A DNA stretch of 64,000 nucleotides from Candidatus Acidiferrales bacterium (GTDB lineage Bacteria; Acidobacteriota; Terriglobia; Acidiferrales; 2-02-FULL-67-57): assembly GCA_965247455.1 (NCBI GenBank), contig CBDFHE010000017.1:3048-67047 (forward strand), in the 5' to 3' direction. Position 1 is the stretch's first letter, and each line of letters opens with the position of its first letter. The notes beneath the pieces were generated by a model that did not search any database, had not been told where the DNA came from, and worked only from the letters and a program-made list of their open reading frames with translations. The translations under genes were made by a program, and so were the position numbers. This document shows positions 2,525 to 64,000 of this stretch, piece by piece.

Positions 2525-2666
2525 GGTAGTGGGTCATTTTGGAAATGTGAATCTCACGCCGAGCCCCGTGGCACCTGCCACGGGGTGCTTTTGCCGCCCA
2601 TCCACCCGGCGGCGGGTGCCGCCGGGCTCAGCGGTAAAGGTAACGTCATCAAACTGACCCACTACC
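2525..2666. mobile_element. MITE family A (142 bp), IS1-like termini
   Basis: 17-bp TIR GGTAGTGGGTCA(T/G)TTTG with 1 mismatch; 8-bp TSD CAGAAACG (2517-2524, 2667-2674); internal GC hairpins. Confidence 0.9.
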
Positions 2667-2807: not shown

Positions 2808-4307
2808 TCAACGGCCAGCACCTCGCCTGGCCCTCTGCCACTCGACAAACCGCACGGCAGCGAGACGCGCCGCCGCATCTGGGACATCACGGATTTCCTG
2901 CAAGATCGCAGTATTGGGCTCTCCCCTTCCGATCAGATGCAGTCGGTAATAACCACGGCTATGGAGGAATACGGTGCGCTTCATTCCCGGACGTCGTACA
3001 GGCGCGGAGAAGCTGACATACGCGTAGTTGCCGGTCACCGGCATTGCGTAGTAGGAATCATCTGCGGCCAAAAGCTCACTGAGCACGTCTCGGCCGCCCT
3101 CGTCGAGAGCCTCCAGCGGAGGTACGTTCTCGACCGATAGTGCCTTGTCACTGCTATAATCGATGACAAAAGAGTTGAGAGCCCAGAAGCCCGCCGGCGG
3201 GCGAACCCGAATGCGCAACTGACGGCCGGGTACCCGGCTTACGTCGAGGAGGACGACACGGTCCTCGGCGATGAACGGTCCGCCGCCGGGTAAAATTCCA
3301 CGCAGCTCCCACCCGGTGGGTTCTTCGACATACAGCTTGAGCGCGTAAAGCTCTTCTCGGAGAGCCCAGGCGTGCAATGCGTTCGCTCCCGTCTGGTCGT
3401 GGTCGATTGACGCATACCAAGCTTCCAAATTGCGACCGCGGAGCTCGAGCATGGCCTTAATCATGTAGGAGCCCCACAGCCCGGTGGCCACCTTCGCTAC
3501 CAGCTTTGCGGAAGTCGCGTCCTTCGGTTTGGGAAAGCTCATTACAATCTCGTGCCTTACGTTGCCATTGACATCAGCCACCGCCTCGGATTCCCAGATG
3601 AGCCTGTCGATTGCCTCCAGCCAGGGAAGCAGGTCACGTCCTGTGTGATCTCGGGCAGACGTCAGACGCTGGGGTGCAGCAAGCGTGGAAAAATTGCCCC
3701 ACTCGTCAGCAACTACTCGGGTTCCCGCCGGGTGGTCGACCACTTGAAGCTCCATAAGATTCGTGAACTGGTCCTCCAGTACTTCGTTAGTGATCATCAG
3801 GCGGTAGAGCCCCTTTTCCGCCCGGAGGTGTTCAAGTTCGCTGTAGTCGTCCCGTTCGAGCCCACGGGTGATAGCGCCACCGTAAGGCTCGGCATCAAAG
3901 ATGTATTGGGTTCCGTCCCATGAATAGATGAAGGGGCATGATTCCTTGGTCGCCGCAACAATAACAGCGGCAACGAGGATTGCACAAACCGCAACCGCCG
4001 CCACCAATCCGATAGTGCGCGCCCTTGACAGCTCCTTCCGTTCCACCCAGAAGCGCTGCACCCGAGCAAGGGAGATTTCGTACGGCGCTCCGTCCGCAGA
4101 GGCATAGATCGTGTCGTTCTTTACCGAGGCTCCCGGAGGGTCGAAGCGGATGTCCTCGCCCTCCACAGTTGTGATTCCGACAATTCTTTCTTTTCCAGGT
4201 TCCTTAACTTCTGTTGGATCCAACCGCCGAGTCTTTGTGACCGCGCAACCCGTAAGCTGCGTCAGAAGCGTGAAGATGACAACGATGACCACAAGCCGAT
4301 TTGTCAT
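2808..4307 (-). CDS. Putative lipoprotein of unknown function
   Basis: Likely start MTNRLVV with lipobox LTGC; internal hydrophobic helix followed by ESCPFIYSWDG, a motif seen in ASPIC/UnbV-associated proteins. Confidence 0.7.
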   Translation of the reverse strand: MTNRLVVIVVIFTLLTQLTGCAVTKTRRLDPTEVKEPGKERIVGITTVEGEDIRFDPPGASVKNDTIYASADGAPYEISLARVQRFWVERKELSRARTIGLVAAVAVCAILVAAVIVAATKESCPFIYSWDGTQYIFDAEPYGGAITRGLERDDYSELEHLRAEKGLYRLMITNEVLEDQFTNLMELQVVDHPAGTRVVADEWGNFSTLAAPQRLTSARDHTGRDLLPWLEAIDRLIWESEAVADVNGNVRHEIVMSFPKPKDATSAKLVAKVATGLWGSYMIKAMLELRGRNLEAWYASIDHDQTGANALHAWALREELYALKLYVEEPTGWELRGILPGGGPFIAEDRVVLLDVSRVPGRQLRIRVRPPAGFWALNSFVIDYSSDKALSVENVPPLEALDEGGRDVLSELLAADDSYYAMPVTGNYAYVSFSAPVRRPGMKRTVFLHSRGYYRLHLIGRGEPNTAILQEIRDVPDAAARLAAVRFVEWQRARRGAGR

Positions 4308-4534
4308 GAGTTCCTTGCAGTCCAAAGTCTGCTGGCACTCAACAAGATATTGTGGGGTGACTTGCATGCTTTGCCTACCTTTGCGGGAAGAGGGATTGAG
4401 GCCGCAGCGAAACTTGTTCTAGGTTGACCTAGCGAAACAAAATCACAAAAACCGCTTTAGATTTTCTTTTGCGCCTAGACAGCACGCGCCAAGTATAACC
4501 TTAGAGAAGAGGGTGTCACCGGGGAGATTTTGTT

Positions 4535-7891: not shown

Positions 7892-8034
7892 GGGGTCAAT
7901 CCTTCGCTCCATGCCAGAGGGGGTAATCGAGCAGAGCGATTGCATCGACCCGGGCCTGCTGGCGAGGCGTGGTCCCAATAGTCGAACGTCAGTTATGGCT
8001 TGAACCGCAACACCCCGCAACAAGAGTAATAGGC

Positions 8035-8070
8035 CAGGCAACCCGCTTCTTGCGCTATAATTCAAACAGA
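8035..8070 (+). promoter_or_regulatory. Sigma70-like promoter segment, copy 1 of a 36-bp direct repeat
   Basis: CAGGCAACCC...TTGCGCTATAATTCAAACAGA; perfect TATAAT; 31/36 identical to 9092-9127. Confidence 0.6.
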
Positions 8071-9051: not shown

Positions 9052-9091
9052 CGGCGTAGCGCCCCGGCCGATAAGGCAAAGAGAAAGGAGT

Positions 9092-9127
9092 CAGGCAACC
9101 CCGCCGTTGCGCTATAATTCAAACAGA
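9092..9127 (+). promoter_or_regulatory. Sigma70-like promoter segment, copy 2
   Basis: TTGCGCTATAATTCAAACAGA upstream of ATG 9147 with a purine-rich RBS. Confidence 0.6.
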
Positions 9128-22978: not shown

Positions 22979-23071
22979 GCTTGTTGCCCAGCGGCAGGGG
23001 CCCCGCGGAGCGGGACAGGCCGCCGGGTTGGACTTTATTACTCCATTTTAACTACCCGTCCGGAAGAGGTG

Positions 23072-23090
23072 CCTGCCTACCGCAGGCAGG
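23072..23090. repeat. 19-nt hairpin micro-element
   Basis: CCTGCCTACCGCAGGCAGG inside a larger GGAAGAGGTG...GCACCCGCTTCC hairpin. Confidence 0.85.
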
Positions 23091-23149
23091 CTTCGCACCC
23101 GCTTCCCGACCTCGTCTAACCCCGTGGCCCCTGCCACGGGGAAACTTAC

Positions 23150-25663: not shown

Positions 25664-25978
25664 ATGGGAAGAATCTTCCGCAAGCAAGTGCTGGTCTGTA
25701 CGGTGGACGGTGAAGGACGCTGCGCGCCGAAAGGCGGCAAGGAAACCTTTCAGAAGTTCCGCGAGGAGGTGAAGGCGCGCGGCCTCGATGTCCTCGTCAC
25801 CTCGCTGGGTTGCACCGGCCAGCACGGCTGCGGGCCGACGGTGGTGGTCCACCCCGACGGCATCTGGTACAAGGAGGTCACGCCCGCCGTGGTTCCGGAA
25901 ATTGTGGAGCAACACTTGGTGGGCGGCAAGGTGGTGGAGCGCCTCATCAACCCGGAGCGTGCCGTCAAAGCGGAATGA
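25664..25978 (+). CDS. Thioredoxin-like [2Fe-2S] ferredoxin
   Basis: LVCT..C...GCTGQHGCGPTVVVHPDGIWY...IVEQHLVGGKVVERL. Confidence 0.88.
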   Translation: MGRIFRKQVLVCTVDGEGRCAPKGGKETFQKFREEVKARGLDVLVTSLGCTGQHGCGPTVVVHPDGIWYKEVTPAVVPEIVEQHLVGGKVVERLINPERAVKAE

Positions 25979-26094
25979 GAAGCCGGAAACCCGCCTACGC
26001 CAAGGCTTCGGCGGGCAGGTCGTCGAGCAACACTTGGTGGGCGGCAAGGTGGTGGAGCGCCTCATCAACCCGGAGCGCGCCGTCAAAGCCGAAT
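25907..26094 (+). repeat. 70-bp direct repeat of the ferredoxin 3' end around a 30-nt hairpin
   Basis: 25907-25976 vs 26025-26094, 2 mismatches; spacer contains CCCGCCTACGCCAAGGCTTCGGCGGGCAGG (25990-26019). Confidence 0.92.
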
Positions 26095-26389
26095 CACAAA
26101 TACGCGGGTGCCCGTACAGGGGTAAACTCCGCCCCTCTTCCAAGCTGTCTTTTATTGGCAGGGGCCTTTCAGCGGCGTTTGCAAAGCGCGAAAGCGGGTG
26201 CCCATACGGGTAAGCTTCGCACCCCTTCCAAACTGGATTTTCCTTCTCTCGCCCCGTCAGGGCACGGCTTTAGCCGTGCCGTAGAGTAGCTAACCAAACA
26301 GACACGGCTTCAGCCGCTGAGGTTCGAGGCAGGACGGCAGGGCACAAGGCTCCTCCCTGCCCGAAGGTTGCGCGACAAACTCCTCCACG

Positions 26390-35641: not shown

Positions 35642-36346
35642 TTAGCCAAGCTTGAAGATTACATCAATGTAAGTTATTACTTCCACCGGCTGGTCGTTCA
35701 ACAACGTGGGCGCGTAGCGCCACTGCTTCACAGCCTGCAAGGCCGATTGCACCAGCAACGGATGTCCTTGAATGACTCTCAGGTTCTGGATGCTGCCATC
35801 CTTGGCAATAATGGCTTCCAGCCGCACCACACCTTGAATCCGCGCCTGCCGGGCGATGGGCGGATAGGTCGGGCTTATTTTGCGAATCACCTTGGCACCC
35901 TGCACGCCGGAGCTGACCCGAATCGGCTTCTGCGGTGGAGGCGGCGGTGCGGCGGACGGAATGCCTCCCAGCACGCCGCCCATCACACCTCCGATCTGAC
36001 CGCCGGGCACACCACCGGGGACGCCGAAAGCCACGCCACCCAAGTCTTCCTCGATGACGGCGACCTTTTTCGGAATGGCCTTGGGCGTGCGCAGTTTTCC
36101 CGCCTGTATCTGAGTGACCTTCCGGCGCACCATACGCCGAATCGGCTTGGCCGACGGTGGCGGCGGAGGCGGCGGAGGCGGAGCGGTCAGGAAGGTAAGC
36201 CGCATGGACTCCGGCAGCGCTTCGGTTTGGATCAAACCCACCAGAACCAATGCCCCCAGCAGCACTGTCTGCAAGGAAGTGGAGATCACATAGGCCCACG
36301 GTTTTTTACGCTTGGCCACAGAGGACTCCAAGATGCTCTCAAACAT
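35642..36346 (-). CDS. tonB: Energy transducer TonB
   Basis: N-terminal TM, poly-Pro linker, YPPIARQARIQGVV...AVKQWRY.P. Confidence 0.92.
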   Translation of the reverse strand: MFESILESSVAKRKKPWAYVISTSLQTVLLGALVLVGLIQTEALPESMRLTFLTAPPPPPPPPPSAKPIRRMVRRKVTQIQAGKLRTPKAIPKKVAVIEEDLGGVAFGVPGGVPGGQIGGVMGGVLGGIPSAAPPPPPQKPIRVSSGVQGAKVIRKISPTYPPIARQARIQGVVRLEAIIAKDGSIQNLRVIQGHPLLVQSALQAVKQWRYAPTLLNDQPVEVITYIDVIFKLG

Positions 36347-36349
36347 GAT

Positions 36350-37600
36350 TCAGCGCCCCCTTCGCTCTGCCATATTAGCTTTTTCCTTCCGCTTCACGAC
36401 CTCGACCTGTTCTGATTTGGGAAGAGCTGTAGGTCGGCCCCAACTCCTCCCTCGCTCGCTCCAGCCTACCACAATTGGGCTGGCAATAAAAACAGAAGAA
36501 TAAGTGCCCACCAGCACCCCCACCAGCAGCGTAAATCCGAAGCCGTGCAGCACCTCTCCTCCCAGCAAGAATAACGCCAGAACCGCCAGGAATGTCAACC
36601 CCGAAGTGAGCACGGTGCGGCTGAGCGTCTGGTTGATGCTGCGGTTCACCAGGGCCGGAAACGACTCCCGCCGCAGCAGGCGGACGTTCTCCCGGATGCG
36701 GTCGAAGGTCACGATCGTGTCATTGACGGAAAACCCCACCAGCGTGAGCAGCGCGGCCACGATGTTTAGATTGAACTCGTAGTCGAACAGCGCAAGAAAA
36801 CCAACCGTAATCAGCACGTCGTGGAAGACGGCGATGACCGCCGCCATCCCGTACACCCACTCCCGGAACCGAACTCCAATGTAAAACAGCACCCCGGCCA
36901 GCGCCAAGCCCGTGGCCAGCAACGCCTGCTGGCGGAGCTGCTGCCCCACGCGCGGCCCCACCACCTCCACGTTCCGCACCACAAACGGCGCCAGCATCGC
37001 CTCTTCTTCCAGCCCGTTCACCACCGCCGGCGGCACCCCTTCCAGCCCGCGCAACTCCTCCAGGCTGCCCAGCAATCCTCCCCTCTGTGTATCGCGGAAG
37101 TCTGTGATGTTTCTCGCAATCTCCTGGTAGCGGCTGGCGGCTTCGGTGGGGCGGCCGCTCAGGCCGATGGGATCCAAACGCACCAGCGCCTCGCGCAGCG
37201 AAGCGGTTCCGACGGCGTTGAGGTCCAGCCGGTCGGCAGGCACCTCGTAGGTAGCGCGCAACGCAGCCAGGATTGCCTGCCGGCTGGTGTCCAGGGCTTC
37301 GTCCTCGTTCTCCGCTTGCTCGGCCCCGATGATGACTTCGTAGTTCTCCACGCGGCCATAGCGCTGAAGCGTGCTCGATCCGATCCCTTCCGCGCGCAGG
37401 CCGGCGCGCAGGCGGTTCAGTTCGGGCGCTTCCGCAAACTTAACGTACACCAGCGTGCCACCTTTGAAGTCCACCCCGTAGCGCAGCCCGCCCCCCAGCA
37501 CCAGTGAGCCAACCCCCGCCAGCAACAACACCAGCGAGAGGCCGAGGAACGGCCACTTCGCCCGCAGGAAATCGAACTTGGGTTCGCGAAACAGCTCCAT
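36350..37600 (-). CDS. secF: Protein translocase subunit SecF
   Basis: GVDFKGG, VGPRVG, GFSVNDTIVTFDRIRE, RTVLTS, GTYSS. Confidence 0.96.
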   Translation of the reverse strand: MELFREPKFDFLRAKWPFLGLSLVLLLAGVGSLVLGGGLRYGVDFKGGTLVYVKFAEAPELNRLRAGLRAEGIGSSTLQRYGRVENYEVIIGAEQAENEDEALDTSRQAILAALRATYEVPADRLDLNAVGTASLREALVRLDPIGLSGRPTEAASRYQEIARNITDFRDTQRGGLLGSLEELRGLEGVPPAVVNGLEEEAMLAPFVVRNVEVVGPRVGQQLRQQALLATGLALAGVLFYIGVRFREWVYGMAAVIAVFHDVLITVGFLALFDYEFNLNIVAALLTLVGFSVNDTIVTFDRIRENVRLLRRESFPALVNRSINQTLSRTVLTSGLTFLAVLALFLLGGEVLHGFGFTLLVGVLVGTYSSVFIASPIVVGWSERGRSWGRPTALPKSEQVEVVKRKEKANMAERRGR

Positions 37601-37603
37601 AGT

Positions 37604-39256
37604 TCAAATACTCAAAGCCGACGGACGCACCTGCCGGCCCAACACAAATTCAAAAATTGCCCGCGAGACGTACACCGCCGTGAACAGATTGGCGAACAGG
37701 CCGATGGTCAGCGTGACCGCAAATCCCTTCACCGGCCCGGTGCCGAACATAAACAGGAAGATGGCGGCGATGATGGTGGTGGCATTGGTGTCGAAGATGG
37801 TGGTGAAGGCGCGGTCGAAGCCGTTCTCCATCGCCGCCACCACACTCTTGCCCACCCGCAGTTCTTCCCGGATACGCTCAAAGACCAGCACGTTGGCGTC
37901 CACCGCCATGCCGATGGTCAGCAGCACCCCGGCAATCCCCGGCAGCGTGAGCGTGGCGCCGAAGTAAGCCAGCACCGCCAGCAAAATCAGCAGGTTCAGC
38001 ACCAACGAAATCAGCGCGTTTATGCCCGACCGGTGGTAATAGAACAGCATGAAAAGCACCACGCCGACGAAGCCCACCGACACCGCCGTGAAGCCGGCGC
38101 GGATGGAGTCCGCCCCCAGCGACGGCCCCACCGTGCGCTCCTCCAGGTACTTGATTGACGCCGGCAGCGAACCCGAGCGCAACACCAACGCTAGGTCGGC
38201 CGCCTCTTGGAAGGTAAACGTCCCGGTGATGCGCCCCGAGTCGTCAATCCGGCTCTGGATGTTGGCCACCGAGCGGATGCGGTTGTCCAGCACCACCGCC
38301 AGCGGCCGCCCCACGTTGCGCTCGGTGAAGGGCCCAAAGCGGGCAGCGCCGTCGGTGCTGAGCGTGAAGTCAATCTCGTAGCTCCCCGGCATCTCCGGGT
38401 TCACCGCCGCGCGGGCGTTGCGTAGGTCGCGCCCGGTCACCACCGAGCTGCGGCTCACGACGTACCAACCGCTGGTGCCGGCCTCAAGTGAGCGCAGCAG
38501 CATGGTGTCCGGGGGCAGAATTCCGCCCCGGGTGCTCAGGGTCTCGCCCTCACTCCCAAACGGGCCGTCTTCCACCAGCTTGATCTCCAGCATGGCGGTG
38601 GATTGCAAAATGCTCTTCACCCGCGCCGGGTCGTCCACGCCCGGCAGTTGCACCAGGATTTCCCACTCGCCCCGGCCGTGCTCGGCAATGGTGGGCTCGC
38701 TCACCCCCAGGGCATCTATACGTTGCCGAATGGTCTGGATCGAGTTGCGCAGCGCTTCCTGCCGGACCTGAACCTGCAAGCTAGGAGTCATCTCCAGCAC
38801 GAAGCCGGATTGCTCGGTCGGCAAACTGCCCAGGGCGTAGGCGCCCCCGCCCACGGTGCTGGGGCTGGTGTAGTTCACTTGCAGGAAATCTCTCGCTTGC
38901 CCCAGTTGCTCGGCCGGGATGCCTGAAATCTGGATGTGGGTAGGGTCCGGCTTGCGGATGCTGCCGAAGCCGATGGCCTCTTCGCGCAGCAGCGTGCGCA
39001 GGCGCTCGGCCACCTGGTCGGTCTCCGAATTGATGGCTTCTGCCACCTGCACCTGCAAGATTAGGTGCATGCCGCCGCGCAGGTCGAGGCCCAGGTTGAT
39101 GCGGTCGCCCAAGTTGCCGCGCAACTCGTCGGTGCTGGTGGGGAAGGCGAACTGCGCCCCGCCGTCCGTCCCCTTGCGGAAGCACAGCAGCCCGAACAGG
39201 CAGACGAGGATGACGCCGAAGATCAGCGTCGCCTTCCAGCGGAGGTTCCGAGTCAT
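37604..39256 (-). CDS. secD: Protein translocase subunit SecD
   Basis: LGLDLRGG, LGVSEP, VQLPG, LRSGSLP, VGPSLG, GMAVDANVL. Confidence 0.96.
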   Translation of the reverse strand: MTRNLRWKATLIFGVILVCLFGLLCFRKGTDGGAQFAFPTSTDELRGNLGDRINLGLDLRGGMHLILQVQVAEAINSETDQVAERLRTLLREEAIGFGSIRKPDPTHIQISGIPAEQLGQARDFLQVNYTSPSTVGGGAYALGSLPTEQSGFVLEMTPSLQVQVRQEALRNSIQTIRQRIDALGVSEPTIAEHGRGEWEILVQLPGVDDPARVKSILQSTAMLEIKLVEDGPFGSEGETLSTRGGILPPDTMLLRSLEAGTSGWYVVSRSSVVTGRDLRNARAAVNPEMPGSYEIDFTLSTDGAARFGPFTERNVGRPLAVVLDNRIRSVANIQSRIDDSGRITGTFTFQEAADLALVLRSGSLPASIKYLEERTVGPSLGADSIRAGFTAVSVGFVGVVLFMLFYYHRSGINALISLVLNLLILLAVLAYFGATLTLPGIAGVLLTIGMAVDANVLVFERIREELRVGKSVVAAMENGFDRAFTTIFDTNATTIIAAIFLFMFGTGPVKGFAVTLTIGLFANLFTAVYVSRAIFEFVLGRQVRPSALSI

Positions 39257-39271
39257 AAGCGCGGGTGTGGA

Positions 39272-39619
39272 CTAACCCTTGGGCTCCTCCCCCGGGGCCT
39301 GCTGGTGGCCGGCAATGTGACTCCGCAGAATCTCCACCTTCACCTGCTCGGCGATGCGCAAGTGCACTGTGCTGCCCCGCAACGCCACGATGGTACCGTG
39401 GAGGCCCCCGCTGGTCACCACCTTGTCGCCGGTCTTCAGCGCCACCAGCATTGCTTGCTGGCGCTTGCGCTGCCGCTGCGCCGGACGAATCAGCAAGAAG
39501 TAGAAAATAACCAGGACAATCAGGAAGGGAAACAACGCCCCTATGATGCCGGGCTGCTGCTGCGCCTGCGCCAACCCCGCCACCGGAGACGCAAGCAAAA
39601 TACTGGCACCTTCGAGCAA
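39272..39619 (-). CDS. yajC: Preprotein translocase subunit YajC
   Basis: IFYFLLIRP, LKTGDKVVTSGGLHG. Confidence 0.93.
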   Translation of the reverse strand: MLEGASILLASPVAGLAQAQQQPGIIGALFPFLIVLVIFYFLLIRPAQRQRKRQQAMLVALKTGDKVVTSGGLHGTIVALRGSTVHLRIAEQVKVEILRSHIAGHQQAPGEEPKG

Positions 39620-39732
39620 GCGGAACCCCCTTCGGAGGAAAGTGAACCCGCCCCCGCTCCACGCGAACGGGGCGACCCAAACCAGAGAGGATGCCCGACG
39701 CTAACTCCTCTTGTCAAGCCGCGATTCCGCTT

Positions 39733-39933
39733 GGCTGTGGGTCTTTTTGAAAATGGGAAGCTCACGCCGAGCCCCGGGGCTTGTCCTGCCTGTCCCGAGC
39801 GTAGGCGAGGGAAGCGAAGCCGAAGGGCACCTGCCACGGGGCGCTTGTGCCGCTTTTCCGCCCGGCGGCCTGCCTGCGGTAGGCAGGCAGGTGCCCCGCT
39901 GGAAGGTACGGGACAGGCCGCCGGGCTCAGCGG
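39733..39933. mobile_element. Decayed copy of MITE family A carrying three inserted hairpin modules
   Basis: Colinear with 2525-2640 after removing inserts at ~39781-39828, 39869-39887 and ~39894-39917; right TIR not found. Confidence 0.75.
39869..39887. repeat. 19-nt hairpin micro-element
   Basis: CCTGCCTGCGGTAGGCAGG; absent at the same site of the intact MITE (2525-2666). Confidence 0.9.
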
Positions 39934-40013
39934 CCAACCAACAGTAGGCAAGCGGCGGGGCACAAGGCCCCGCCCTACCCCGCTGCTGGGCACAGAAACA
40001 GGTAGGGCAGGGG

Positions 40014-40032
40014 CTTGCCTGCCTCAGGTAGG
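40014..40032. repeat. 19-nt hairpin micro-element (variant)
   Basis: CTTGCCTGCCTCAGGTAGG interrupting GTAGGGCAGGGG|CTTGCC. Confidence 0.6.
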
Positions 40033-40122
40033 CTTGCCGAAGGGCCCCTGCGTTCTGCTCTTGGGAGAACACCCTCACGGCGACCGTGGAACCGAGCACG
40101 TGAGGTCTGCGACACCGAGGCG

Positions 40123-41723
<1,601 letters not shown>

Positions 41724-41769
41724 AAACATTTGCTTTTAGGTATAGACGTATATCAATGTGAGGTGACCC

Positions 41770-42584
41770 ATGAAAGCAACTGCAAACGAACAGAAAGAAA
41801 AAGTCCGCGCCGCCTACGGCGAAGTTGCCCGCACCCGCGACGCCCACACAGCCGCCGCCTGCTGCGAGCCGACCTGCTGCGCCTCATCCGGCCACGCGCC
41901 TGACTACAGCCCGGAGGAGATTGCCTCCGTCCCGCAAGGGGCCTACCTGGGTGAGGGCAGCGGCAACCCGATTCGCGCCGCCCGACTGCAACCGGGTGAG
42001 CGCGTAGTTGACCTGGGCTGCGGCGCGGGCATGGACACTTTTCTGGCCGCCAACCAGGTAGGAAAAGCTGGGCACGTCATCGGCCTCGACATGACGCCGG
42101 AGATGCTGGAGCGGGCACGCACCAACGCCGCCCGTAGCGACTATCCCCAGGTGGAGTTCCGCCAGGCGGACATCGAGCACCTGCCCCTCCCCCCAACTCC
42201 GCCGACGTGGTGCTGAGCAACTGTGTCATCAACCTGGCACCGGACAAAGCCGCCGTCTATCGCGAAATCTTCCGCGTGCTCAAGCCGGGCGGGCGATTCG
42301 CCGTGGCCGACATCGTGCTGCGCGGCGAGGCCGACCTGATTCACCAAGCAGCGGAGAAGCTGGCACCCGGCAGTTGCGTCGCGACCGCCTTGGAACAGAA
42401 CGCATACCTCGAAACTATTCGCGGCGCCGGGTTTGAGTCAGTGGAAATAGTGGCCGAGCGCCCGGCCCTCTCTCAGCCTCAAGTGGCCGAAGCAGCCCGG
42501 AAGCTCGGCTTCGATCCAGAAGACAAACGCGTGAGCGCGGAAGCGGTCACCCTGGTAGGGCGCAAGCCGGCCCAAGCCAACTAA
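41770..42584 (+). pseudogene. arsM: Arsenite methyltransferase-like gene split by a 1-bp deletion in a C-run
   Basis: VVDLGCGAGMD, IGLDMT, ADIEHLPLP then SADVVLSNCVINL, LKPGGRF, SCVA in another frame; C6 run at 42189-42194. Confidence 0.78.
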
Positions 42585-42604
42585 CCCATTCGAAAAACAC
42601 GAAA

Positions 42605-42634
42605 GCCCTCGGCGAACATAGGCTCGCCGAGGGC
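42605..42634. terminator. Hairpin between convergent arsM and rpoD
   Basis: Perfect 11-bp stem GCCCTCGGCGA/TCGCCGAGGGC, 8-nt loop; weak U-tracts. Confidence 0.55.
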
Positions 42635-42654
42635 CGAATTTTCCCGCCGACCGC

Positions 42655-44349
<1,695 letters not shown>

Positions 44350-44703
44350 TTTCCTCCACCCGTCTTGCTCCAAGGCGAACGGCCGGACGGCCTCCGCCGG
44401 GCCTGGGGGTTAATCGATTAAGATGGAAACAGTTATCAGGATTTCCTTCGATTCTCAGCGCGCCGACGCACCCCTCCACGACTCGCCACACTAGATTAGA
44501 TCGAACCAGCCGCCTAAACCTTCCGCCAAAACCTTTCTAAATTAGCAGGTAAGCCCGCCCGCCGTCAACTCGTCTCCGGCAAAGGTAGTGTCTTAATTTC
44601 ACACCGAGCCCCCAGGCCCCTGCCTGGGGGAAGCGAAAATCCCTGCGGCGGGGGCCGCAGGGCTCGGTGTGATTTGGGCCGAGTTCCGAATCGCTCAAAT
44701 TAA

Positions 44704-46373
44704 CCCGGATTTCCGATTTGGCTGTGGTACCGTATCGCCAGGACCAGTCGCTGCGCCTTGAGTTTTGGGGCTCCGACGTAAGGAACCACACTACGGAGGG
44801 TGACACCCGGTGGGTGAATTACAACACGAGCCATTCCAGTTCGCGTTCAACGGCTTCTTGAAAGTCGCGTTCCAGGGATCGCGCGTCACTTCTGACGCTG
44901 GCCTCATTCTGGTGCGCGAGTTGGATGAACGTCTGGGGCTGGAGACACTCATCGCCGAGCACCTGAGCGATTCCCGACAGGGGATGAACACCCAGTTCAG
45001 CGTGGTGGATCTCCTGCGGCAGTCGGTCTACAGTCGCCTCGCGGGCTACGAAGATCTCAACGACGCGGGGCGCGTGTCGGCAGACCCAACATTTCGTCTC
45101 ATCGGGTCGCCAAAGCGCTGGGACCGGGGTGCGGCGCTGACATCGACGCTGCATTGGTTCGAGACAGAGCTGCTGACCCACGAGGAGAATCTCGTCGGGT
45201 TGAGGGCCGTGAACCGGGAGGTGCTTGCACAGGCCGAGATGGCGACGCGCGCCGACCGGATCGTGCTCGACATGGATTCGAGCGAGAGCCCGGTGCATGG
45301 GGCGCAGGAAGGGAGCGCCTATAACGGGCACTTCGAGTCCGTCTGCTACCACCCGCTGTTTCTGTTCACCGAGCATGGGGACTGCCTCGCCGCCACGCTG
45401 CGGCCAGGCAACGTGCATAGCGCCGACGACTGGGACGACCTGCTCGTACCGGAGATTGACCGGCAGCAGGTGGAGGGCAAGCGCGTAGCGTTCCGCGCAG
45501 ACGCCGCGTTCGCGAAGCCCGAGATCTACGACGCGCTCGAGCAGCGCGACGTGGACTATGCCATTCGCATGCCGGCGAACAAGAGCTTGGAGCTGGAAAT
45601 CGAAGACATCCTCTTTCGTCCGCCGGGACGGCCGAGCTGCAAGCCCTTGGTGCGCTACCAGAGTTTCCGCTATCAGGCCAAGAGCTGGACCACGCCCAGA
45701 CGGATCGTCGCCAAGGTGGAGCACCACCAAGGTGAGCTGTTCCCTCGCGTCGGCTTCATCGTGACCAACACGGCCCTCCCGAGCCGCTCGGTCGTGCGGT
45801 TTTACAACAAGCGCGGTACGGCGGAGCAATGGATCAAGGAAGGCAAGCAGGCCACCCACTGGACGCGGCTGTCGTGCCATCGTTTCCGGGCGAACGAGGT
45901 GCGCCTGCAACTGAGCGTCCTGGCCTACAATCTGGGCAACTTGTGGCGCAGACTGGTCCTTCCGCTGCGGGTCAAGCGCTGGTCGCTCACGAGTCTCCAG
46001 CAGCGACTGGTGAAAACTGGGGGCCGGCTGGTGAAGCATGCGCGGTACTACTGGCTTCTGCTGGCGGAAGGGCATCTCACGCGGCGGCTGTTCGGCGACA
46101 TGCTGCGGAGGATCTGGGCGCTACCCGTGCCGGCAGGCTGACGCGCGGCCTGAAGTGCAACGAAGCCCGCCCGGCGATGACACGGGGCACACGTGTGGAG
46201 CGGTGTCTGAGAAATGCCCGAAAAGCAGGGGTTCCAGTCGGTCGCACGTCGGCGCGGGCTCAGATGAAGGCCTTTGAAGCTGAGCGATTGTGCGACGATC
46301 GAAGTTTTTGTGCGATCGGCGGCGATCGGGTGTATAAACGTGCCATCAGGGGCAGGCAAAACGGAAATCCCGG
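44704..46373 (+). mobile_element. IS1380-family insertion sequence
   Basis: 17-bp TIR CC(C/G)GGATTTCCG(A/T)TTTG; 5-bp TSD ATTAA (44699-44703, 46374-46378). Confidence 0.92.
44810..46141 (+). CDS. IS1380-family DDE transposase
   Basis: TSDAGL, GYEDLND, LDMDSS, YNGHF, FRADAAF, YNKRGTAEQWIKEGK. Confidence 0.95.
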   Translation: MGELQHEPFQFAFNGFLKVAFQGSRVTSDAGLILVRELDERLGLETLIAEHLSDSRQGMNTQFSVVDLLRQSVYSRLAGYEDLNDAGRVSADPTFRLIGSPKRWDRGAALTSTLHWFETELLTHEENLVGLRAVNREVLAQAEMATRADRIVLDMDSSESPVHGAQEGSAYNGHFESVCYHPLFLFTEHGDCLAATLRPGNVHSADDWDDLLVPEIDRQQVEGKRVAFRADAAFAKPEIYDALEQRDVDYAIRMPANKSLELEIEDILFRPPGRPSCKPLVRYQSFRYQAKSWTTPRRIVAKVEHHQGELFPRVGFIVTNTALPSRSVVRFYNKRGTAEQWIKEGKQATHWTRLSCHRFRANEVRLQLSVLAYNLGNLWRRLVLPLRVKRWSLTSLQQRLVKTGGRLVKHARYYWLLLAEGHLTRRLFGDMLRRIWALPVPAG

Positions 46374-46843
46374 ATTAAGACACTACCCCGGCAAATGGCA
46401 CTGGCGAACAATTCTGTTGAAAGTGAGGCGAGGAGGCCAGTAGCGACGAAGAAGCCGGAGGCTTCTTCGTCGGCTTTATCTCCCTCCAGAAACCGCCCTA
46501 TGCCGGAAAGCAACGCCAACTACCTGGTTTAAAATGGCTTAGCCCTGAACCCCCCGCAACCACGACCCCACAGACGCTGCAGCGAACTACCAGGGGGGTA
46601 TCTTCTCAACTTGCGGGATTAACTCGCTTAAAAGAAACTGCTTAGCGGCGGGAACTAGTTTCAAAATCATGTTTTTTTCTGCTTCTTTCCACCTCCTTCT
46701 CTGCCAGACGAGCCAGCGGCAATTCTTTCCGCCACCACCCCAGAATAGCTGAAATCCCCTCCCCGCTCAACCCGCACCCTCACTTTACTTTCAACAGAAA
46801 AACCTACAGACGGGAAGGAACTTGGCGAAGCTCAGACGGTGGG

Positions 46844-47119
46844 TTAGTCGGCGCCGGTCGGGGCCTCGCTGGGCTGCACGCTGATGTAGCGGCCCAGGTG
46901 GCCTTTTTTCTCGAACAGCACAATGCCGTTGGCGGTGGCGAAGAGGGTGTCGTCGCGGCCGCGGCCGACGTTGGCGCCGGCCTTGTAAGGCGTGCCGCGC
47001 TGGCGGACGAGGATGGAGCCGGCGTGCACCCACTGGCCGCCGAAGCGCTTGATGCCCAGCCGCTTGGCTTGGCTGTCGCGCCCGTTGGTGCTGCTGCCCT
47101 GACCTTTTTTGTGCGCCAT
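46844..47119 (-). CDS. rpmA: 50S ribosomal protein L27
   Basis: [22 protein letters not shown]...GRDDTLFA. Confidence 0.97.
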
Positions 47120-47122
47120 GGC

Positions 47123-47446
47123 TTACTCCGATGCGTGGCCGGAAATCGCAGTGATTTTGACCGCGGTGTAGGGCTGGCGGTGCCCGCGCATGATCTTGTA
47201 CTGGCTGTTCTTTTTGAACTTGAAGACGCGCACCTTGGCACCCTTGCCTTGCTCGACGATGGTGCCGCTGACTTTGGCCTTGGCCAGCAGGGGCGTACCG
47301 GTGGCGAGCTTGTTCTTTTCCTGCACCGCCAGCACTTCCTTGAAGGTGACTTTGCCGCCTGCCTTGCCGGGCAGGCTCTCGACGCGGATAACCTCGTCTT
47401 TGGCTACGCGGTACTGCTTGCCGCCGCTGCGAATGACTGCGTACAT
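47123..47446 (-). CDS. rplU: 50S ribosomal protein L21
   Basis: MYAVIRSGGKQYRV...GHRQPYTAVKI. Confidence 0.97.
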   Translation of the reverse strand: MYAVIRSGGKQYRVAKDEVIRVESLPGKAGGKVTFKEVLAVQEKNKLATGTPLLAKAKVSGTIVEQGKGAKVRVFKFKKNSQYKIMRGHRQPYTAVKITAISGHASE

Positions 47447-47621
47447 CAGAACTTCGGCTCCCCTTGCAAACAAGCCATTATAGGGGCGCTCGCGCCGGGT
47501 GTCAACGAGGTGTACTCGTCCAGTAGATTAGTGACACTTGGCCTCCTTTGATTGGGATTGCCACTGGGCCAGAAACTCGTGGGGAGTGAGGTAGCCCAGG
47601 GCTTGGTGCGGACGCACGGTG

Positions 47622-47640
47622 CCTGCCTGCCGCAGGCGGG
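47622..47640. repeat. 19-nt hairpin micro-element in transposase
   Basis: CCTGCCTGCCGCAGGCGGG; removal restores codons TAC AAC ACC GTG. Confidence 0.92.
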
Positions 47641-47837
47641 TTGTAGACGCGCTCCCACGCCTGCAACTCCTGATTGAGGGCCGCGATCTCCAGGGAGCAC
47701 TCCGTGACTTCACAAAACTCCTCCCGATGGGTGCGCTGGGCCCGCTCGACGCAGCCGTTGAGTTTGGGCGAGCGGGGCGGCAGCACGAACAGTTTCAACC
47801 CCCGCTGCTGGCAGGCCTCTTCGAAGACGGCGGCGAA

Positions 47838-47856
47838 CCTGCCTACCGCAGGCAGG
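47838..47856. repeat. 19-nt hairpin micro-element in transposase
   Basis: CCTGCCTACCGCAGGCAGG; removal restores AGT GAG TTC GCC. Confidence 0.92.
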
Positions 47857-48405
47857 CTCACTGCCGCCATTGACCTGCAGAGCTCGCAGCGGGAAGGGCA
47901 GGCGTTGCTGCAGGGTGTCGAGGAAGCGGGCCGCAGCGCTGGCCGTGGCTCGGCGGTGGACCTCGACCACGTCCCAGCGGCAGATTACAGCGCGAGCCGT
48001 AAAGTGCTTGAGGACCACGCCCGGCAGAGGCCGCAACTCCAGGGTATCGACTTGCACCAGATCGCCGGGCTGGGAGATGCAGTAATCCTTGGGCTTACGC
48101 ACGGCATAGGGCCGCCGCCCGCCGCGCCGGTGCGCGCGGACCGCCCGGCGGGGCGCTTCCACCAGCCGACCGCGCCTCTTCAGTTCCGTGAGGATGCGTC
48201 CCACCATCGAGGTGGACACCCCCACCCCTTCCCGGCGGAGCAAGACCACCAGTTTGCCTTCCCCCACCGGGGGCGCAACCGCCGCAGTCTCCGCACCCGT
48301 TCGGCCCACTGGGGGCTCCAGGTGGGCCGGCGTCAACGGTGGGGCCGGCGGAACCGCTCCTCCAGGCTCGCGAGGTGGTGGGGATCATAGCGGCGTTTCC
48401 AGCGG

Positions 48406-48424
48406 CCTGCCTGCCGCAGGCAGG
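48406..48424. repeat. 19-nt hairpin micro-element in transposase
   Basis: CCTGCCTGCCGCAGGCAGG; removal restores TTC TAC CGC TGG. Confidence 0.92.
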
Positions 48425-48686
48425 TAGAAGGTCGGCCGGCTGATCCCGAAGTGCCGGCAGGTCAGGGCCGCGTTGCGCCCCCGGGTGCGGTAGTAGTCCA
48501 TCCACTGCACCCGGACGCGAGCGGCCCGGCTCAATTCCACTCCGGCCCGCCCGTACGGGCGGGGTAGTCTTCTTGAGATGATTTGCATGGTGACACTCTA
48601 CCAAGAGTCACCCATCATTCTGAACGAGTACAAGCACGGTGAGAGGCGCGCACCCATTTGGCTGGGCTCGTGTAGAATAACTCGCG

Positions 48687-51907: not shown

Positions 51908-52030
51908 GGAGAAAAGTGTAGCGAAGCAGGGCGAGGGAAGCAAATCACCGTTCTCCCTCACTGCGGTTTTCCCCTGGTCGCGGGTCGATCCCACAAACAA
52001 ACTGGCGGTCCGGAAGAGGTGCCTGTCTAC

Positions 52031-52049
52031 CTCGCCTACCGCAGGCAGG
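52031..52049. repeat. 19-nt hairpin micro-element (variant)
   Basis: CTCGCCTACCGCAGGCAGG inside a GGAAGAGGTG... hairpin. Confidence 0.65.
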
Positions 52050-52200
52050 CTCCGCCCCCGCTCTGCATCCATTGGGCCTCCGCCGTGAGCGAAAAGCCGA
52101 CGAAAAATCCGCCGCGGCGGATTCTTCGCCGCTACCTGGCTGCTTGCAACTAATCTGCGAGTGTGCGTTTGGCGAGAGAGGGAAGCGGGGCGAAGAAAAG

Positions 52201-59377: not shown

Positions 59378-59507
59378 GGCAGTGTCTTGATTTCGCACCG
59401 AGCCCCCAGGCCCCTGCCTGGGGGAAGCAAAAAGCCCTGCGGCGGGGGCCGCAGGGCTCGGTGTGAATTGGGGTTGAGTTTGGAATCGCTCAAATTAGGA
59501 CACTACC
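59378..59507. mobile_element. MITE family B, uninterrupted copy
   Basis: TIR GGCAGTGTCTTGATTT / AAATTAGGACACTACC; flanking repeat GGGCGCTC(T/C); near-identical to 44584-44703. Confidence 0.88.
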
Positions 59508-59583
59508 GGGCGCTCCGGAAGTGGTCTGGAGGTTAGAAAAACTTAAGAAAGCGAGCGCAGAATAAGCGGGCCGAAGGGTCAGG

Positions 59584-60042
59584 TCAGCGACCGCGTCCCG
59601 GTCCGCGCGCGCGGCCTCCGGCAGCACGAGCCCGGCGGCGTCCTTGTGCGCCGGGACGCGCCTGGCCGCTGTTGCGCTGGGCGCGGCGACGGTGAAGCTG
59701 GCCGTGGCGCTTGGCGAAGCGCTTCTTCGCCTGTTTCACGCGCCGCTTGTCCTTGCGCAGCTTGGCCCCGGCCTCGCGCGCCTGCGGGCTGTCCTTGCCG
59801 GACTCGTCCACCGCTTGGCGGTAAGTCTGGCGGTCGGTTTGGAGCCGCTCGCGGGCCTGGGCAAACCGTTCTTGGGCTTTCTGGTGGAGTTCGCGGTGGC
59901 GGTTCTGTCGGTCGGTTTGTTCGGTTGCGGTTGGGTCGTTGCTGGGATCGTTGGCGTCTTGCGCGGCCAGGCCGACGGGCAAAAGCAAAGCCGCCCCCAG
60001 CGCGGAGGCTAGCATCCAGCGAATGAAGTTGCTCGATTGCAT
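59584..60042 (-). CDS. Hypothetical secreted helical protein with Arg-rich tail
   Basis: Signal peptide ending LAA-Q; RBS AGGAGAG; coiled-coil pattern. Confidence 0.6.
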   Translation of the reverse strand: MQSSNFIRWMLASALGAALLLPVGLAAQDANDPSNDPTATEQTDRQNRHRELHQKAQERFAQARERLQTDRQTYRQAVDESGKDSPQAREAGAKLRKDKRRVKQAKKRFAKRHGQLHRRRAQRNSGQARPGAQGRRRARAAGGRARGPGRGR

Positions 60043-60189: not shown

Positions 60190-60208
60190 CCTGCTTGCCG
60201 CAGGCAAG
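60190..60208. repeat. 19-nt hairpin micro-element (variant)
   Basis: CCTGCTTGCCGCAGGCAAG interrupting CTCTCTGCG|TCTCAGCGGTG. Confidence 0.8.
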
Positions 60209-63420: not shown

Positions 63421-63439
63421 CTTGCCTGCGGCAAGCAGG
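63421..63439. repeat. 19-nt hairpin micro-element (variant)
   Basis: CTTGCCTGCGGCAAGCAGG in an intergenic CAGAG-type repeat. Confidence 0.75.
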
Positions 63440-63458
63440 CGCAGCGACCGCTGAGAGG

Positions 63459-63920
63459 TCACCTGGCCTTGGTTGCCCCGCCTGTCCTGCTTGTCCGGAG
63501 CGCAGTCGAAGGGCGCTTTTTCTTCTTCCTTTTCGCACTACGGGGCGGGCGCTCGTAGGCGCAGCCGAACCAGCGCACCGCTTCTTCCAGGTGCGCGCGC
63601 GAGCTGAGTTCCACTTCCACCCAGCCGGTGAACCCCAGCCTTGACGGCCGGACGGCCTTGCGCTTGAGCGCGCGCTCGGCGTCGGCCGGCCGCAGCCGCA
63701 TCCAGGCATAGGTGGGCTCGCCGGGGCGGCCCAGCCACTCTGGTTTCTTCTTGCTGAGGGCGCGGTTGACGTAGCAGCCCAGCATCTGCTTGCCGCGGAA
63801 GAAAGCCAGCGCGCCCATCATGGGTCGCGCTTGCACGCCCGGCCAGGAGAGCAGCTCCGCCCGCAGGACTTCGCCTAGCTCATCCTCCAGCGGCCGCGTG
63901 CTCCAGTCAGCTTTCCGCAT
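63459..63920 (-). CDS. Hypothetical protein (possibly TfoX/MmcQ-like fold)
   Basis: LLSWPGV.ARPMMG..AFFRGK pattern; 153-aa ORF. Confidence 0.5.
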   Translation of the reverse strand: MRKADWSTRPLEDELGEVLRAELLSWPGVQARPMMGALAFFRGKQMLGCYVNRALSKKKPEWLGRPGEPTYAWMRLRPADAERALKRKAVRPSRLGFTGWVEVELSSRAHLEEAVRWFGCAYERPPRSAKRKKKKRPSTALRTSRTGGATKAR

Positions 63921-64000
63921 CAGCAGTAGCTTATCACTGCGCGCGCGCGCGGTTTTTCTCTGCGTCCTCTGCCGGTGAAACAGTTCGCCACAGAGACACA

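Follow-up and report, generated by a model that had tools for sequence, protein, structure and literature searches.

In a 64,000-nucleotide stretch of DNA from a Candidatus Acidiferrales bacterium (contig CBDFHE010000017.1; the whole stretch is referred to below as the window), a decayed copy of a miniature inverted-repeat transposable element (MITE), here termed MITE A, carries additional blocks of 19 and 24 nt in its two hairpins, H1 and H2. The most probable reading, to which we assign a likelihood of roughly 70%, is that the two MITE hairpins were colonised by a separate class of tiny non-coding mobile units. Units of 19 and 24 nt are among the smallest mobile DNA described. The 19-nt unit, hereafter hp19, is CCTGCCTGCGGTAGGCAGG, a hairpin with a 7-bp stem and a 5-nt loop, and this is the sole frame of the unit compatible with all of its sites. 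The 24-nt family comprises CCTGTCCYGAGCGNAGCCGAAGGG and variants such as CCTGTCCCGTACCTTCCAGCGGGG, which differ in the middle. Both kinds share a CCTGYCC head and a GG(G) tail, and they come in two discrete lengths, 19 and 24 nt. The folding energy of hp19 is -6.9 kcal/mol (z = -3.5), and inside H2 the unit lengthens the stem to -25.7 kcal/mol, whereas the 24-mers fold no better than shuffles (z from +1.1 to -1.25). The initial annotation of this DNA had described mobile hairpins of 19-30 nt; the precise mobile units stand, although only the 19-nt unit folds and the 24-mers are not hairpins. With up to two mismatches, hp19 is found at nine window sites against 0.01 expected from shuffles, and the 24-mer pattern occurs twice, again against 0.01 expected. 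Depth over 39781-39817 is about 50x single-copy in public runs, so the units, or composites of them, are abundant.

Exact insertions in an IS481-like gene and in MITE A

A dead IS481-like insertion sequence (IS) in the window defines the boundaries of hp19, which it carries at 48406-48424, 47838-47856 and 47622-47640. The gene is otherwise broken by one stop codon and one further frameshift. Cutting exactly 19 nt at each site restores the reading frame (ISRPTFY/RWKRR, GGSE/FAAVF and ERVYN/TVRPHQALG, with the slash at the junction; the second includes the catalytic E of the DDE triad) and leaves the Pfam domains HTH_28 and rve_3 (profile positions 2-67 of 67) continuous over the junctions. In hairpin sites the junctions are ambiguous by 3 nt (GGC), which could mask a 3-bp duplication. 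The IS flanks, by contrast, are not GGC and have only 1-2 nt in common with the insert ends, so GG(C) belongs to the unit, and hp19 is an exact 19-nt insert without target duplication. The intact MITE A copy at 2525-2666 had initially been taken to show an empty site and no duplication; it is indeed empty, but the GGC ambiguity could hide a duplication there, and it is the IS sites that settle the question.

No intact IS481-like copy was present in the loci examined, and the empty sites come from public contigs. In run X9 a 604-nt contig lacks exactly 47838-47856, and a loose end runs from 48405 directly to 48425, leaving the site of 48406-48424 empty. The IS is itself polymorphic: an allele in runs X1 and X10 skips 47531-48589 (1059 nt) with an 8-nt overlap that resembles a target duplication, and in run X3 the hp19-bearing form stands at about twice single-copy depth.

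MITE A is an ordinary MITE, with terminal inverted repeats, a target duplication of fixed length and many non-coding copies. When one genome per species was scanned for its pattern, it turned up almost only in the metagenome-assembled genome (MAG) 'Acidobacteria bacterium isolate B25T1B10' (28 loci) and in a second uncultured MAG. About 260 kb of sequence was covered in all, of which some 200 kb are MAG loci holding about 30 non-coding copies; depth is about 50x single-copy in public runs. Locus L003 of the B25T1B10 MAG is 91-93% identical to window 35968-42862, so the window comes from a sister species or strain of that MAG, and the window's own sequence is present in public runs labelled as marine, sediment or vent metagenomes or as coded organisms. 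The terminal repeats of the intact window copy, GGTAGTGGGTCA and TGACCCACTACC, recur in most MAG copies, and 8-bp target duplications flank the intact elements of the window (CAGAAACG, at 2525), L002 (CAACTCAC), L011 (CGTCGGCG) and L019 (AAAGACAG). H1 has the form CCCCGTGGC-ACCT-GCCACGGGG (-12.2 kcal/mol) and H2 the form CCCGGCGGC-RGGT-GCCGCCGGG (-13.6 kcal/mol), each with z of about -4.

Alignment of the MITE A copies with tabulation of the insert boundaries, as the initial annotation had proposed, shows the same sites empty, singly filled or differently filled in 30 further copies from related MAGs. The copies were parsed by sequence anchors, as MAFFT pairwise alignment placed the first block correctly and misaligned everything after the second insert. 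Thirty-five MITE A-like copies were parsed for the H1 site (site 1), and the 39733 copy of the window is left out of the counts. About 22 of the 35 have an empty site 1, and eight have a single 24-mer of the CCTGTCCTGAGCAGAGTCGAAGGG type there. Both H2 sites are empty in 11 copies; otherwise the top-strand site contains hp19 in L027, L028 and L030 and a 24-mer in L012, while the bottom-strand site contains hp19 in eight copies and a 24-mer in L030. Because different units occupy one site in different copies, a single ancestral long form is excluded. The insert states are scattered over the clustering of the backbones and do not match backbone relatedness. Within the youngest subfamily, whose members diverge by at most 3.5%, no unit is present at window 2525 or in L002, L007 and L031, one is present in L011 and three in L012; over their 142 nt, the elements of L002 and L011 differ in the 19-nt unit and in nothing else. 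L019 keeps a fragment, AGGCAGGCC, and real losses are therefore imprecise and leave a scar.

The pile-up in the tgt-yajC spacer and its landing rule

Window 39733-39944 is a degenerate MITE A copy which, by manual alignment and anchor parsing, is colinear with 2525-2666 apart from three extra blocks, one of them nested (Table 1). These lie where the initial annotation had placed them and with the sequences it quoted, and its description of the copy as dead also holds: the left terminal repeat is mutated (GGCTGTGGGTC versus GGTAGTGGGTC), and the right third is replaced or rearranged after about 39944. The colinear backbone consists of 39737-39776, 39828-39868, 39888-39893 and 39918-39933. Within 39945-40013 no clean right end or target duplication is recognisable, and CCCTACC at 39973-39979 is a possible remnant of the right terminal repeat. 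The site of insert 2 is filled in the same orientation by hp19 in L027, L028 and L030, and the site of insert 3 holds a related unit in L030. Further right, the sister lineage retains the element at 40014-40051, which varies between strains. Repeats are dense in the region, and public contigs built from short reads end there; the junctions within 39759-39842, 39806-39892 and 39859-39966 were nevertheless recovered in public contigs from at least four independent runs, with 0-1 differences and at single-copy depth. As the pile-up is placed between minus-strand tgt and yajC, with secD and secF coming after yajC, it is a transcribed spacer of a tgt-yajC-secDF operon.

Table 1. Coordinates of the decayed MITE A copy, its inserts and related features of the window
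Feature	Position	Strand	Description
Intact MITE A, empty-site reference	2525-2666	+	12-bp terminal inverted repeats GGTAGTGGGTCA/TGACCCACTACC; 8-bp target duplication CAGAAACG
Solitary H2-like hairpin	22987-23027	-	CCCAGCGGC AGGG GCCGCCGGG, with 19-nt CCTGTCCCGCTCCGCGGGG at 23001-23019
yajC	39272-39619	-	Pfam YajC
Left arm of the 39733 copy	39733-39779	+	90% identity to 2529-2568; reaches H1 5' arm CCCCGGGG (family consensus CCCCGTGG)
Insert 1, 48 nt, in H1	39780-39827	+	CTTGTCCTG (CCTGTCCCGAGCGTAGGCGAGGGA) AGCGAAGCCGAAGGG, a 24-mer within a 24-mer
Insert 1, outer 24-mer	39780-39788 plus 39813-39827	+	CTTGTCCTG...AGCGAAGCCGAAGGG, split after the 9th base
Insert 1, inner 24-mer	39789-39812	+	CCTGTCCCGAGCGTAGGCGAGGGA, nested in the outer 24-mer
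Backbone	39828-39868	+	End of H1 5' arm (C), loop ACCT, 3' arm GCCACGGGG, spacer, most of H2 5' arm (CCCGGCGG)
Insert 2, hp19, 19 nt	39869-39887	+	CCTGCCTGCGGTAGGCAGG at H2 5'-arm/loop junction, top strand
Backbone	39888-39893	+	Last base of H2 5' arm (C), loop AGGT, first base of 3' arm (G)
Insert 3, 24-mer	39894-39917	-	CCTGTCCCGTACCTTCCAGCGGGG at H2 5'-arm/loop junction, bottom strand
Backbone	39918-39944	+	Rest of H2 3' arm, GCTCAGCGG, degenerate CCAACCAACAG (= CAAATCAACAT in intact copies)
Rearranged right part	39945-40013	.	Hairpin GGCGGGGC-ACAAG-GCCCCGCC at 39954-39974
31-nt element akin to the 24-mers	40014-40051	+	CTTGCCTGCCTCAGGTAGGCTTGCCGAAGGG, centred in palindrome GCAGGGG/CCCCTGC
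tgt	40123-41328	-	Pfam TGT, E = 3e-156
Dead IS481-like insertion sequence	47531-48589	-	HTH_28 and rve_3 domains; three hp19 copies

In hairpin targets the unit always lies at the junction of the 5' arm and the loop (...GG^C, with the caret at the point of insertion), on the strand where it reads 5'-CCTG. H2 is palindromic, so that its bottom-strand site mirrors its top-strand site with the unit flipped accordingly; since the rule follows the strand reading CCTG, one palindromic hairpin can be hit on both strands, as in the 39733 copy. The same rule is seen outside MITE A, at L025:2621, L015:269, L017:3568, L035:5683 and window 23001-23019, where CCTGTCCCGCTCCGCGGGG, a 19-nt relative of the 24-mers, occupies the bottom-strand arm/loop junction of the H2-like hairpin. 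The liking for existing hairpin DNA noted in the initial annotation is borne out by the joined flanks, which fold below the 5th percentile of random 32-mers in 21 of 49 instances, a count that omits instances in which a second insert hides the hairpin. Hairpin targeting is a strong preference rather than a requirement, and two of the three IS sites have no hairpin. Orientation relative to the target strand is constant, and purine^C is all that the flanks have in common, with GG^C at hairpins and AA^C, AG^T and TA^C at the IS sites. Nesting recurs elsewhere: at L005:5916-5963 a near-identical inner unit sits in the same 24-in-24 position, within the loop of a GTAG-headed palindrome resembling repetitive extragenic palindromic (REP) sequences, and at L005:7941 the loop of an hp19-like hairpin holds an hp19.

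The history of the locus can be approached through the sister lineage, in which L003 and the independent contig L036, 91-94% identical to the window over about 7 kb, keep the same decayed MITE. Only two large indels separate them from the window, both within the pile-up. The first coincides with site 1, which is empty in L003 and L036, with the sequence of the family consensus GAGCCCCGTGGCACC; in net length the two forms differ by 48 nt, equal to two 24-mers. The second is the absence from the sister lineage of 39870-40014 (145 nt), between C(T)TGCCTGC repeats supplied by the inserts; this is a deletion, because the missing stretch includes MITE backbone. Strains in runs X4 and X5 also lack 39893-39966 (74 nt), between GCCCCGC repeats. 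The deletions observed use repeats of 7-9 nt and are not unit-precise. From these comparisons, the MITE appears to have resided in the tgt-yajC spacer before the window and MAG lineages split. For the 48-nt block at H1, a gain in the window lineage is preferred, and a precise loss in the sister lineage seems less likely. The pair of hp19 and a 24-mer in H2 is common to the 39733 copy and to L030, a complete MITE at another locus, so the two H2 inserts were probably carried in when the MITE transposed. Of the three insertions that the initial annotation had assigned to the 39733 copy, then, the first is favoured as a local event and the other two were probably inherited.

Several other repeats adjoin these subjects. 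GTAG-headed palindromes of classical REP form (GGTAGCGRCGAWGA...loop...TCWTCGYCG) occur at window 52085-52137, L005:5737-5775, L005:5888-5985 and L025:190-230; some hold micro-elements in the loop and, unlike hp19, they have the REP tag. Their presence hints that a RAYT-like enzyme may exist in the genome. At window 22987-23141, two terminator-like hairpins, one with a 19-nt insert, lie between convergent genes; between them is hp19 within a repeat (GTCCGGAAGAGGTG...CTTCGCACCCGCT) that is also found at 52006-52062, and 23000-23132 (133 nt) is missing, at single-copy depth, from the strain in run X14. A variant hairpin, CTTGCCTGCGGCAAGCAGG, is present twice, at window 63421-63513 and 60190-60208. 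Other hairpin families, such as CCTGCCCGCCCTAGGCGGGCAGG, fill the same H2 site (L009:1700-1730, L013:7880-7910 and L025:60-125), and in L025 at least four such hairpin units are crowded together beside a truncated MITE A. A second MITE family, B (window 44584-44715 and 59378-59508; L017:3377-3600), has the terminal repeat GGTAGTGTC...GACACTACC and the same two-hairpin layout as MITE A (CCCCCAGGC-CCCT-GCCTGGGGG and CCCTGCGGC-GGGG-GCCGCAGGG). The L017 element is a chimera with an A-type left and a B-type right part joined at H2, which suggests recombination between MITE families at hairpins.

Proposed mobilisation in trans, competing explanations and known relatives

The data show the units landing in hairpins at the 5'-arm/loop junction, in one another and, less often, in ordinary sequence, where the 19-nt unit breaks reading frames. 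Because they are without coding capacity, the units depend on an activity supplied in trans, and they may be moved as single-stranded or extruded-hairpin DNA. The mobilising enzyme would read structure more than sequence and may be a nuclease-ligase specific for single strands or hairpins. Our best guess is a HUH/Y1 nuclease-ligase of the RAYT or IS200-like kind, which fits best because an enzyme of this kind leaves no duplication, depends on hairpins and is strand-specific. The link of REPs to such enzymes and the related TIRYT genes of acidobacteria point in the same direction, although the units have neither the unpaired end tag that defines REPs nor the two hairpins of IS200/IS605. In the decayed copy, the right third would have become scrambled, and related lineages would then have lost 74-145 nt between short repeats derived from the inserts. 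A bolder version of this reading, which we advance only tentatively and hold somewhat below even odds, is that units of 19 and 24 nt that need an autonomous enzyme, smaller than any transposable element of known mechanism, home without target duplication to the 5'-arm/loop junctions of extruded GC-rich hairpins. Their enzyme would read the CCTGYCC...GG ends together with structure and would lie outside the characterised transposon families or form a new HUH branch. The pile-ups would build, lengthen and break hairpin clusters, and would be a main driver of intergenic turnover in this acidobacterial lineage.

A number of points weigh against the mobile-unit reading. A tblastn search of the 260 kb with two probes, which is a weak search, returned nothing above noise for a Y1/HUH transposase gene, no RAYT or TIRYT gene beside any unit and no tnpA. 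At the locus itself, a single exact loss in the sister lineage would, by number of events, be just as parsimonious as a pair of insertions; metagenomes scanned for the tgt-yajC spacer of a third lineage gave only the second assembly of the MAG lineage, and no outgroup for the 48-nt block. In the more distant runs X8-X14, contigs are too short and too mixed with other MITE copies to reveal an intermediate with the outer 24-mer alone. The H2 inserts of the window copy and of L030 are not independent events, and, leaving aside the MITE A copies of the window itself, the census copies all come from related MAGs and not from the window's own genome. Roughly every second independent site is not a hairpin. 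Finally, some units are partial or hybrid and unlike the products of clean transposition: 63481-63513 consists of a 9-nt head (CCTGTCCTG, 63481-63489) followed by a full 24-mer with no matching tail, a misfit to clean nesting, L010:6144 has a duplicated half unit and run X9 has 15 extra bases behind 40012. Such forms hint at copying errors or recombination.

These forms bear most directly on the main rival explanation, one that we consider unlikely, in which the blocks arose by templated repair copying and no dedicated transposase was involved. A hairpin would be nicked or broken 5' of its loop, or a fork would stall, a polymerase would copy the block by means of 1-3 nt of microhomology, and gene conversion or template switching would spread the block. 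Cleavage at the 5' side of the loop is known from hairpin nucleases such as SbcCD. The 3-nt GGC overlap at every hairpin-target junction would suit such copying, as would the frequent microhomology deletions in the same region, the empty result of the weak tblastn search and the partial or hybrid units, among them the 63481-63489 head, the duplicated GTAGGCAGG at L010:6144, the 15-nt partial insert of X9 and the A/B chimera of L017. Copying of this kind is hard to reconcile, however, with quantised lengths of 19 or 24 nt and constant ends across unrelated targets, with a strictly consistent orientation relative to the target strand, and with an hp19 that is near-identical at many loci. The three IS sites, two of them without a hairpin, offer an overlap of only 1-2 nt.

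It is very improbable that the long form is ancestral and that the short MITE A copies arose by precise hairpin deletion, an outcome that the initial annotation had named as refuting its proposal. Deletions do occur (145 nt in the sister lineage, 74 nt in the X4 and X5 strains and the L019 footprint), the filled state is heritable, as the window copy and L030 illustrate, and the 3-nt GGC repeats beside each unit would permit slippage. Yet the deletions actually observed run between repeats of 7-9 nt and not at unit boundaries, and empty copies are the majority and form the youngest, near-identical subfamily. The different occupants of single sites, the 19-nt difference between L002 and L011, and a protein-coding frame split three times by hp19, in which the uninterrupted version is the conserved one, contradict an ancestral long form for the family; for the 48-nt block at this one locus, the long form may yet be ancestral.

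We give scarcely any credence to selected structural modules, that is, REP-like mRNA stabilisers or terminators of the tgt-yajC-secDF operon that recur by selection or convergence. The pile-up does lie within a transcribed operon spacer, hp19 does lengthen the H2 stem, and REPs have been credited with such roles (PMC3733652). Identical 19-mers also frameshift a transposase reading frame, however, presence and absence differ between near-identical copies and between strains, the units are not confined to functionally equivalent positions, and the 24-mers are without structure of their own; a function after insertion is possible, yet it would leave the origin of the units unexplained. Almost certainly, the pattern is neither a chance resemblance nor an artefact of assembling a repeat-rich MAG: the many repeats of the region and the breaks in public short-read contigs there would favour such an origin, but nine sites stand against a shuffle expectation of 0.01, at least four independent runs reproduce the junctions at single-copy depth, and two independent assemblies agree on the sister-lineage form. 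Among the established integration mechanisms, DDE transposition is ruled out by the lack of a target duplication, and together with off-target Cas1-Cas2 integration and integron attC recombination it is rejected on the constant inserted sequence, the unduplicated target and the small size of the unit.

Very small mobile repeats are an already known phenomenon; what is new here is the phylum, the explicit landing rule and the unusually direct evidence from filled and empty sites. The small dispersed repeats SDR4-6 of Nostoc and other cyanobacteria, said to have been reported by Elhai and colleagues in 2008, are reportedly non-coding, about 20-27 nt long, and inserted without target duplication in one another and in other repeats. 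Their mobility was reportedly inferred from filled versus empty paralogous or orthologous sites, with the mechanism and enzyme said to be unknown. The units described here are likewise small, non-coding, nested and inserted in paralogues and orthologues without target duplication, at 19 and 24 nt. They differ in coming from a GC-rich genome whose MAG is labelled Acidobacteria, and in their fixed lengths and sharp target rule (the 5'-arm/loop junction of a GC-rich hairpin, on either strand); no relationship between the two sets of sequences is known. No match to the unit sequences was found in the literature searched.

Comparison with REPs is also instructive. The GTAG-23 REPs of Thermomicrobium roseum sit in small palindromes of the form CCGSSCC(n3-4)GGSSCGG (Di Nocera et al. 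2013, PMC3733652), Y1/HUH transposases have been proposed as REP mobilisers, and Acidobacteria are reported to carry related TIRYT genes. H2, CCCGGCGGC-AGGT-GCCGCCGGG, resembles those palindromes, and in both systems short palindromic repeats lie in small GC-rich palindromes and cluster in blocks. Unlike REPs, hp19 has no unpaired end tag: its GTAG runs from the loop into the 3' arm (CCTGCCT-GCGGT-AGGCAGG), a placement in the loop that follows from the unit boundaries fixed by the empty sites. The 24-mers, moreover, are non-palindromic and have no terminal tag, and hp19 is also found in coding sequence as a frame-breaking insert.

Elements of the IS200/IS605 group and the gene-less palindrome-associated transposable elements (PATEs) insert without target duplication, depend on hairpins and have a strand-specific orientation to the target. 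An IS200/IS605 element has a pair of dissimilar subterminal hairpins, enters 3' of a fixed target of 4-5 nt and, even without a gene, is at least 100 nt long. The present units share with the IS200/IS605 superfamily (PMC6006769) the absence of target duplication and of DDE-type terminal inverted repeats, although hp19 as a whole is one inverted repeat, and a hairpin-linked, strand-specific insertion; single-stranded intermediates would explain the liking for extruded hairpins. They differ in being 19-24 nt long, in having at most one hairpin and in a flank regularity limited to purine^C. A further parallel is provided by IS1397 and ISKpn1, insertion sequences that are reported to target REP hairpins (Tobes and Pareja 2006). 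Insertion there is likewise aimed at the loop region of existing extragenic hairpins, although these are complete elements of the IS3 family that encode a transposase and duplicate their target, unlike units of 19-24 nt.

Other features of the window and significance

The window has a G+C content of ~62%, and Rfam at the gathering threshold gave no matches over its whole length. A contig search with the SecD open reading frame likewise returned no exact match. A scan for split hairpins (8-nt GC-rich arms, 15-130 nt apart) was swamped by chance arms in this GC-rich DNA and supplied only a few extra examples. The cumulative GC skew reaches its minimum at about 44000-48000 and rises afterwards, which could reflect a replication origin, a terminus or a local effect. 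A SAM-dependent methyltransferase domain is split over the overlapping open reading frames 41770-42216 and 42207-42584 (Methyltransf_31 profile positions 3-67 and 77-140) and may be a frameshift or a pseudogene. A 78-nt direct repeat (25904-25981 and 26022-26099; 94% identity, 118 nt apart) lies at a gene end, and a 49-nt repeat ending in TTGCGCTATAATTCAAACAGA (8022-8070 and 9079-9127) stands upstream of two genes and resembles a shared promoter. Open reading frames with coding-like composition and no Pfam match are present at 2808-4367 (minus strand), 59584-60042 and 63459-63998, the largest encoding 519 aa.

How REP- or SDR-sized repeats spread is a long-standing open question, and for most of them mobility has been inferred from copy number alone. 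The material described here is unusually clean, with exact lengths, filled and empty pairs that differ in nothing else, and frame-restoring insertions in a conserved gene; it further offers one simple geometric landing rule and presence/absence polymorphism among strains in public data. The mechanism is thereby open to direct testing, with oligonucleotides as substrates and only a few enzymes as candidates. Short-read assemblies are broken by the units, a point of importance for the quality of MAGs from this group. For the genomes that carry them, the units inactivate genes, here an IS, and create microhomologies that drive deletions.

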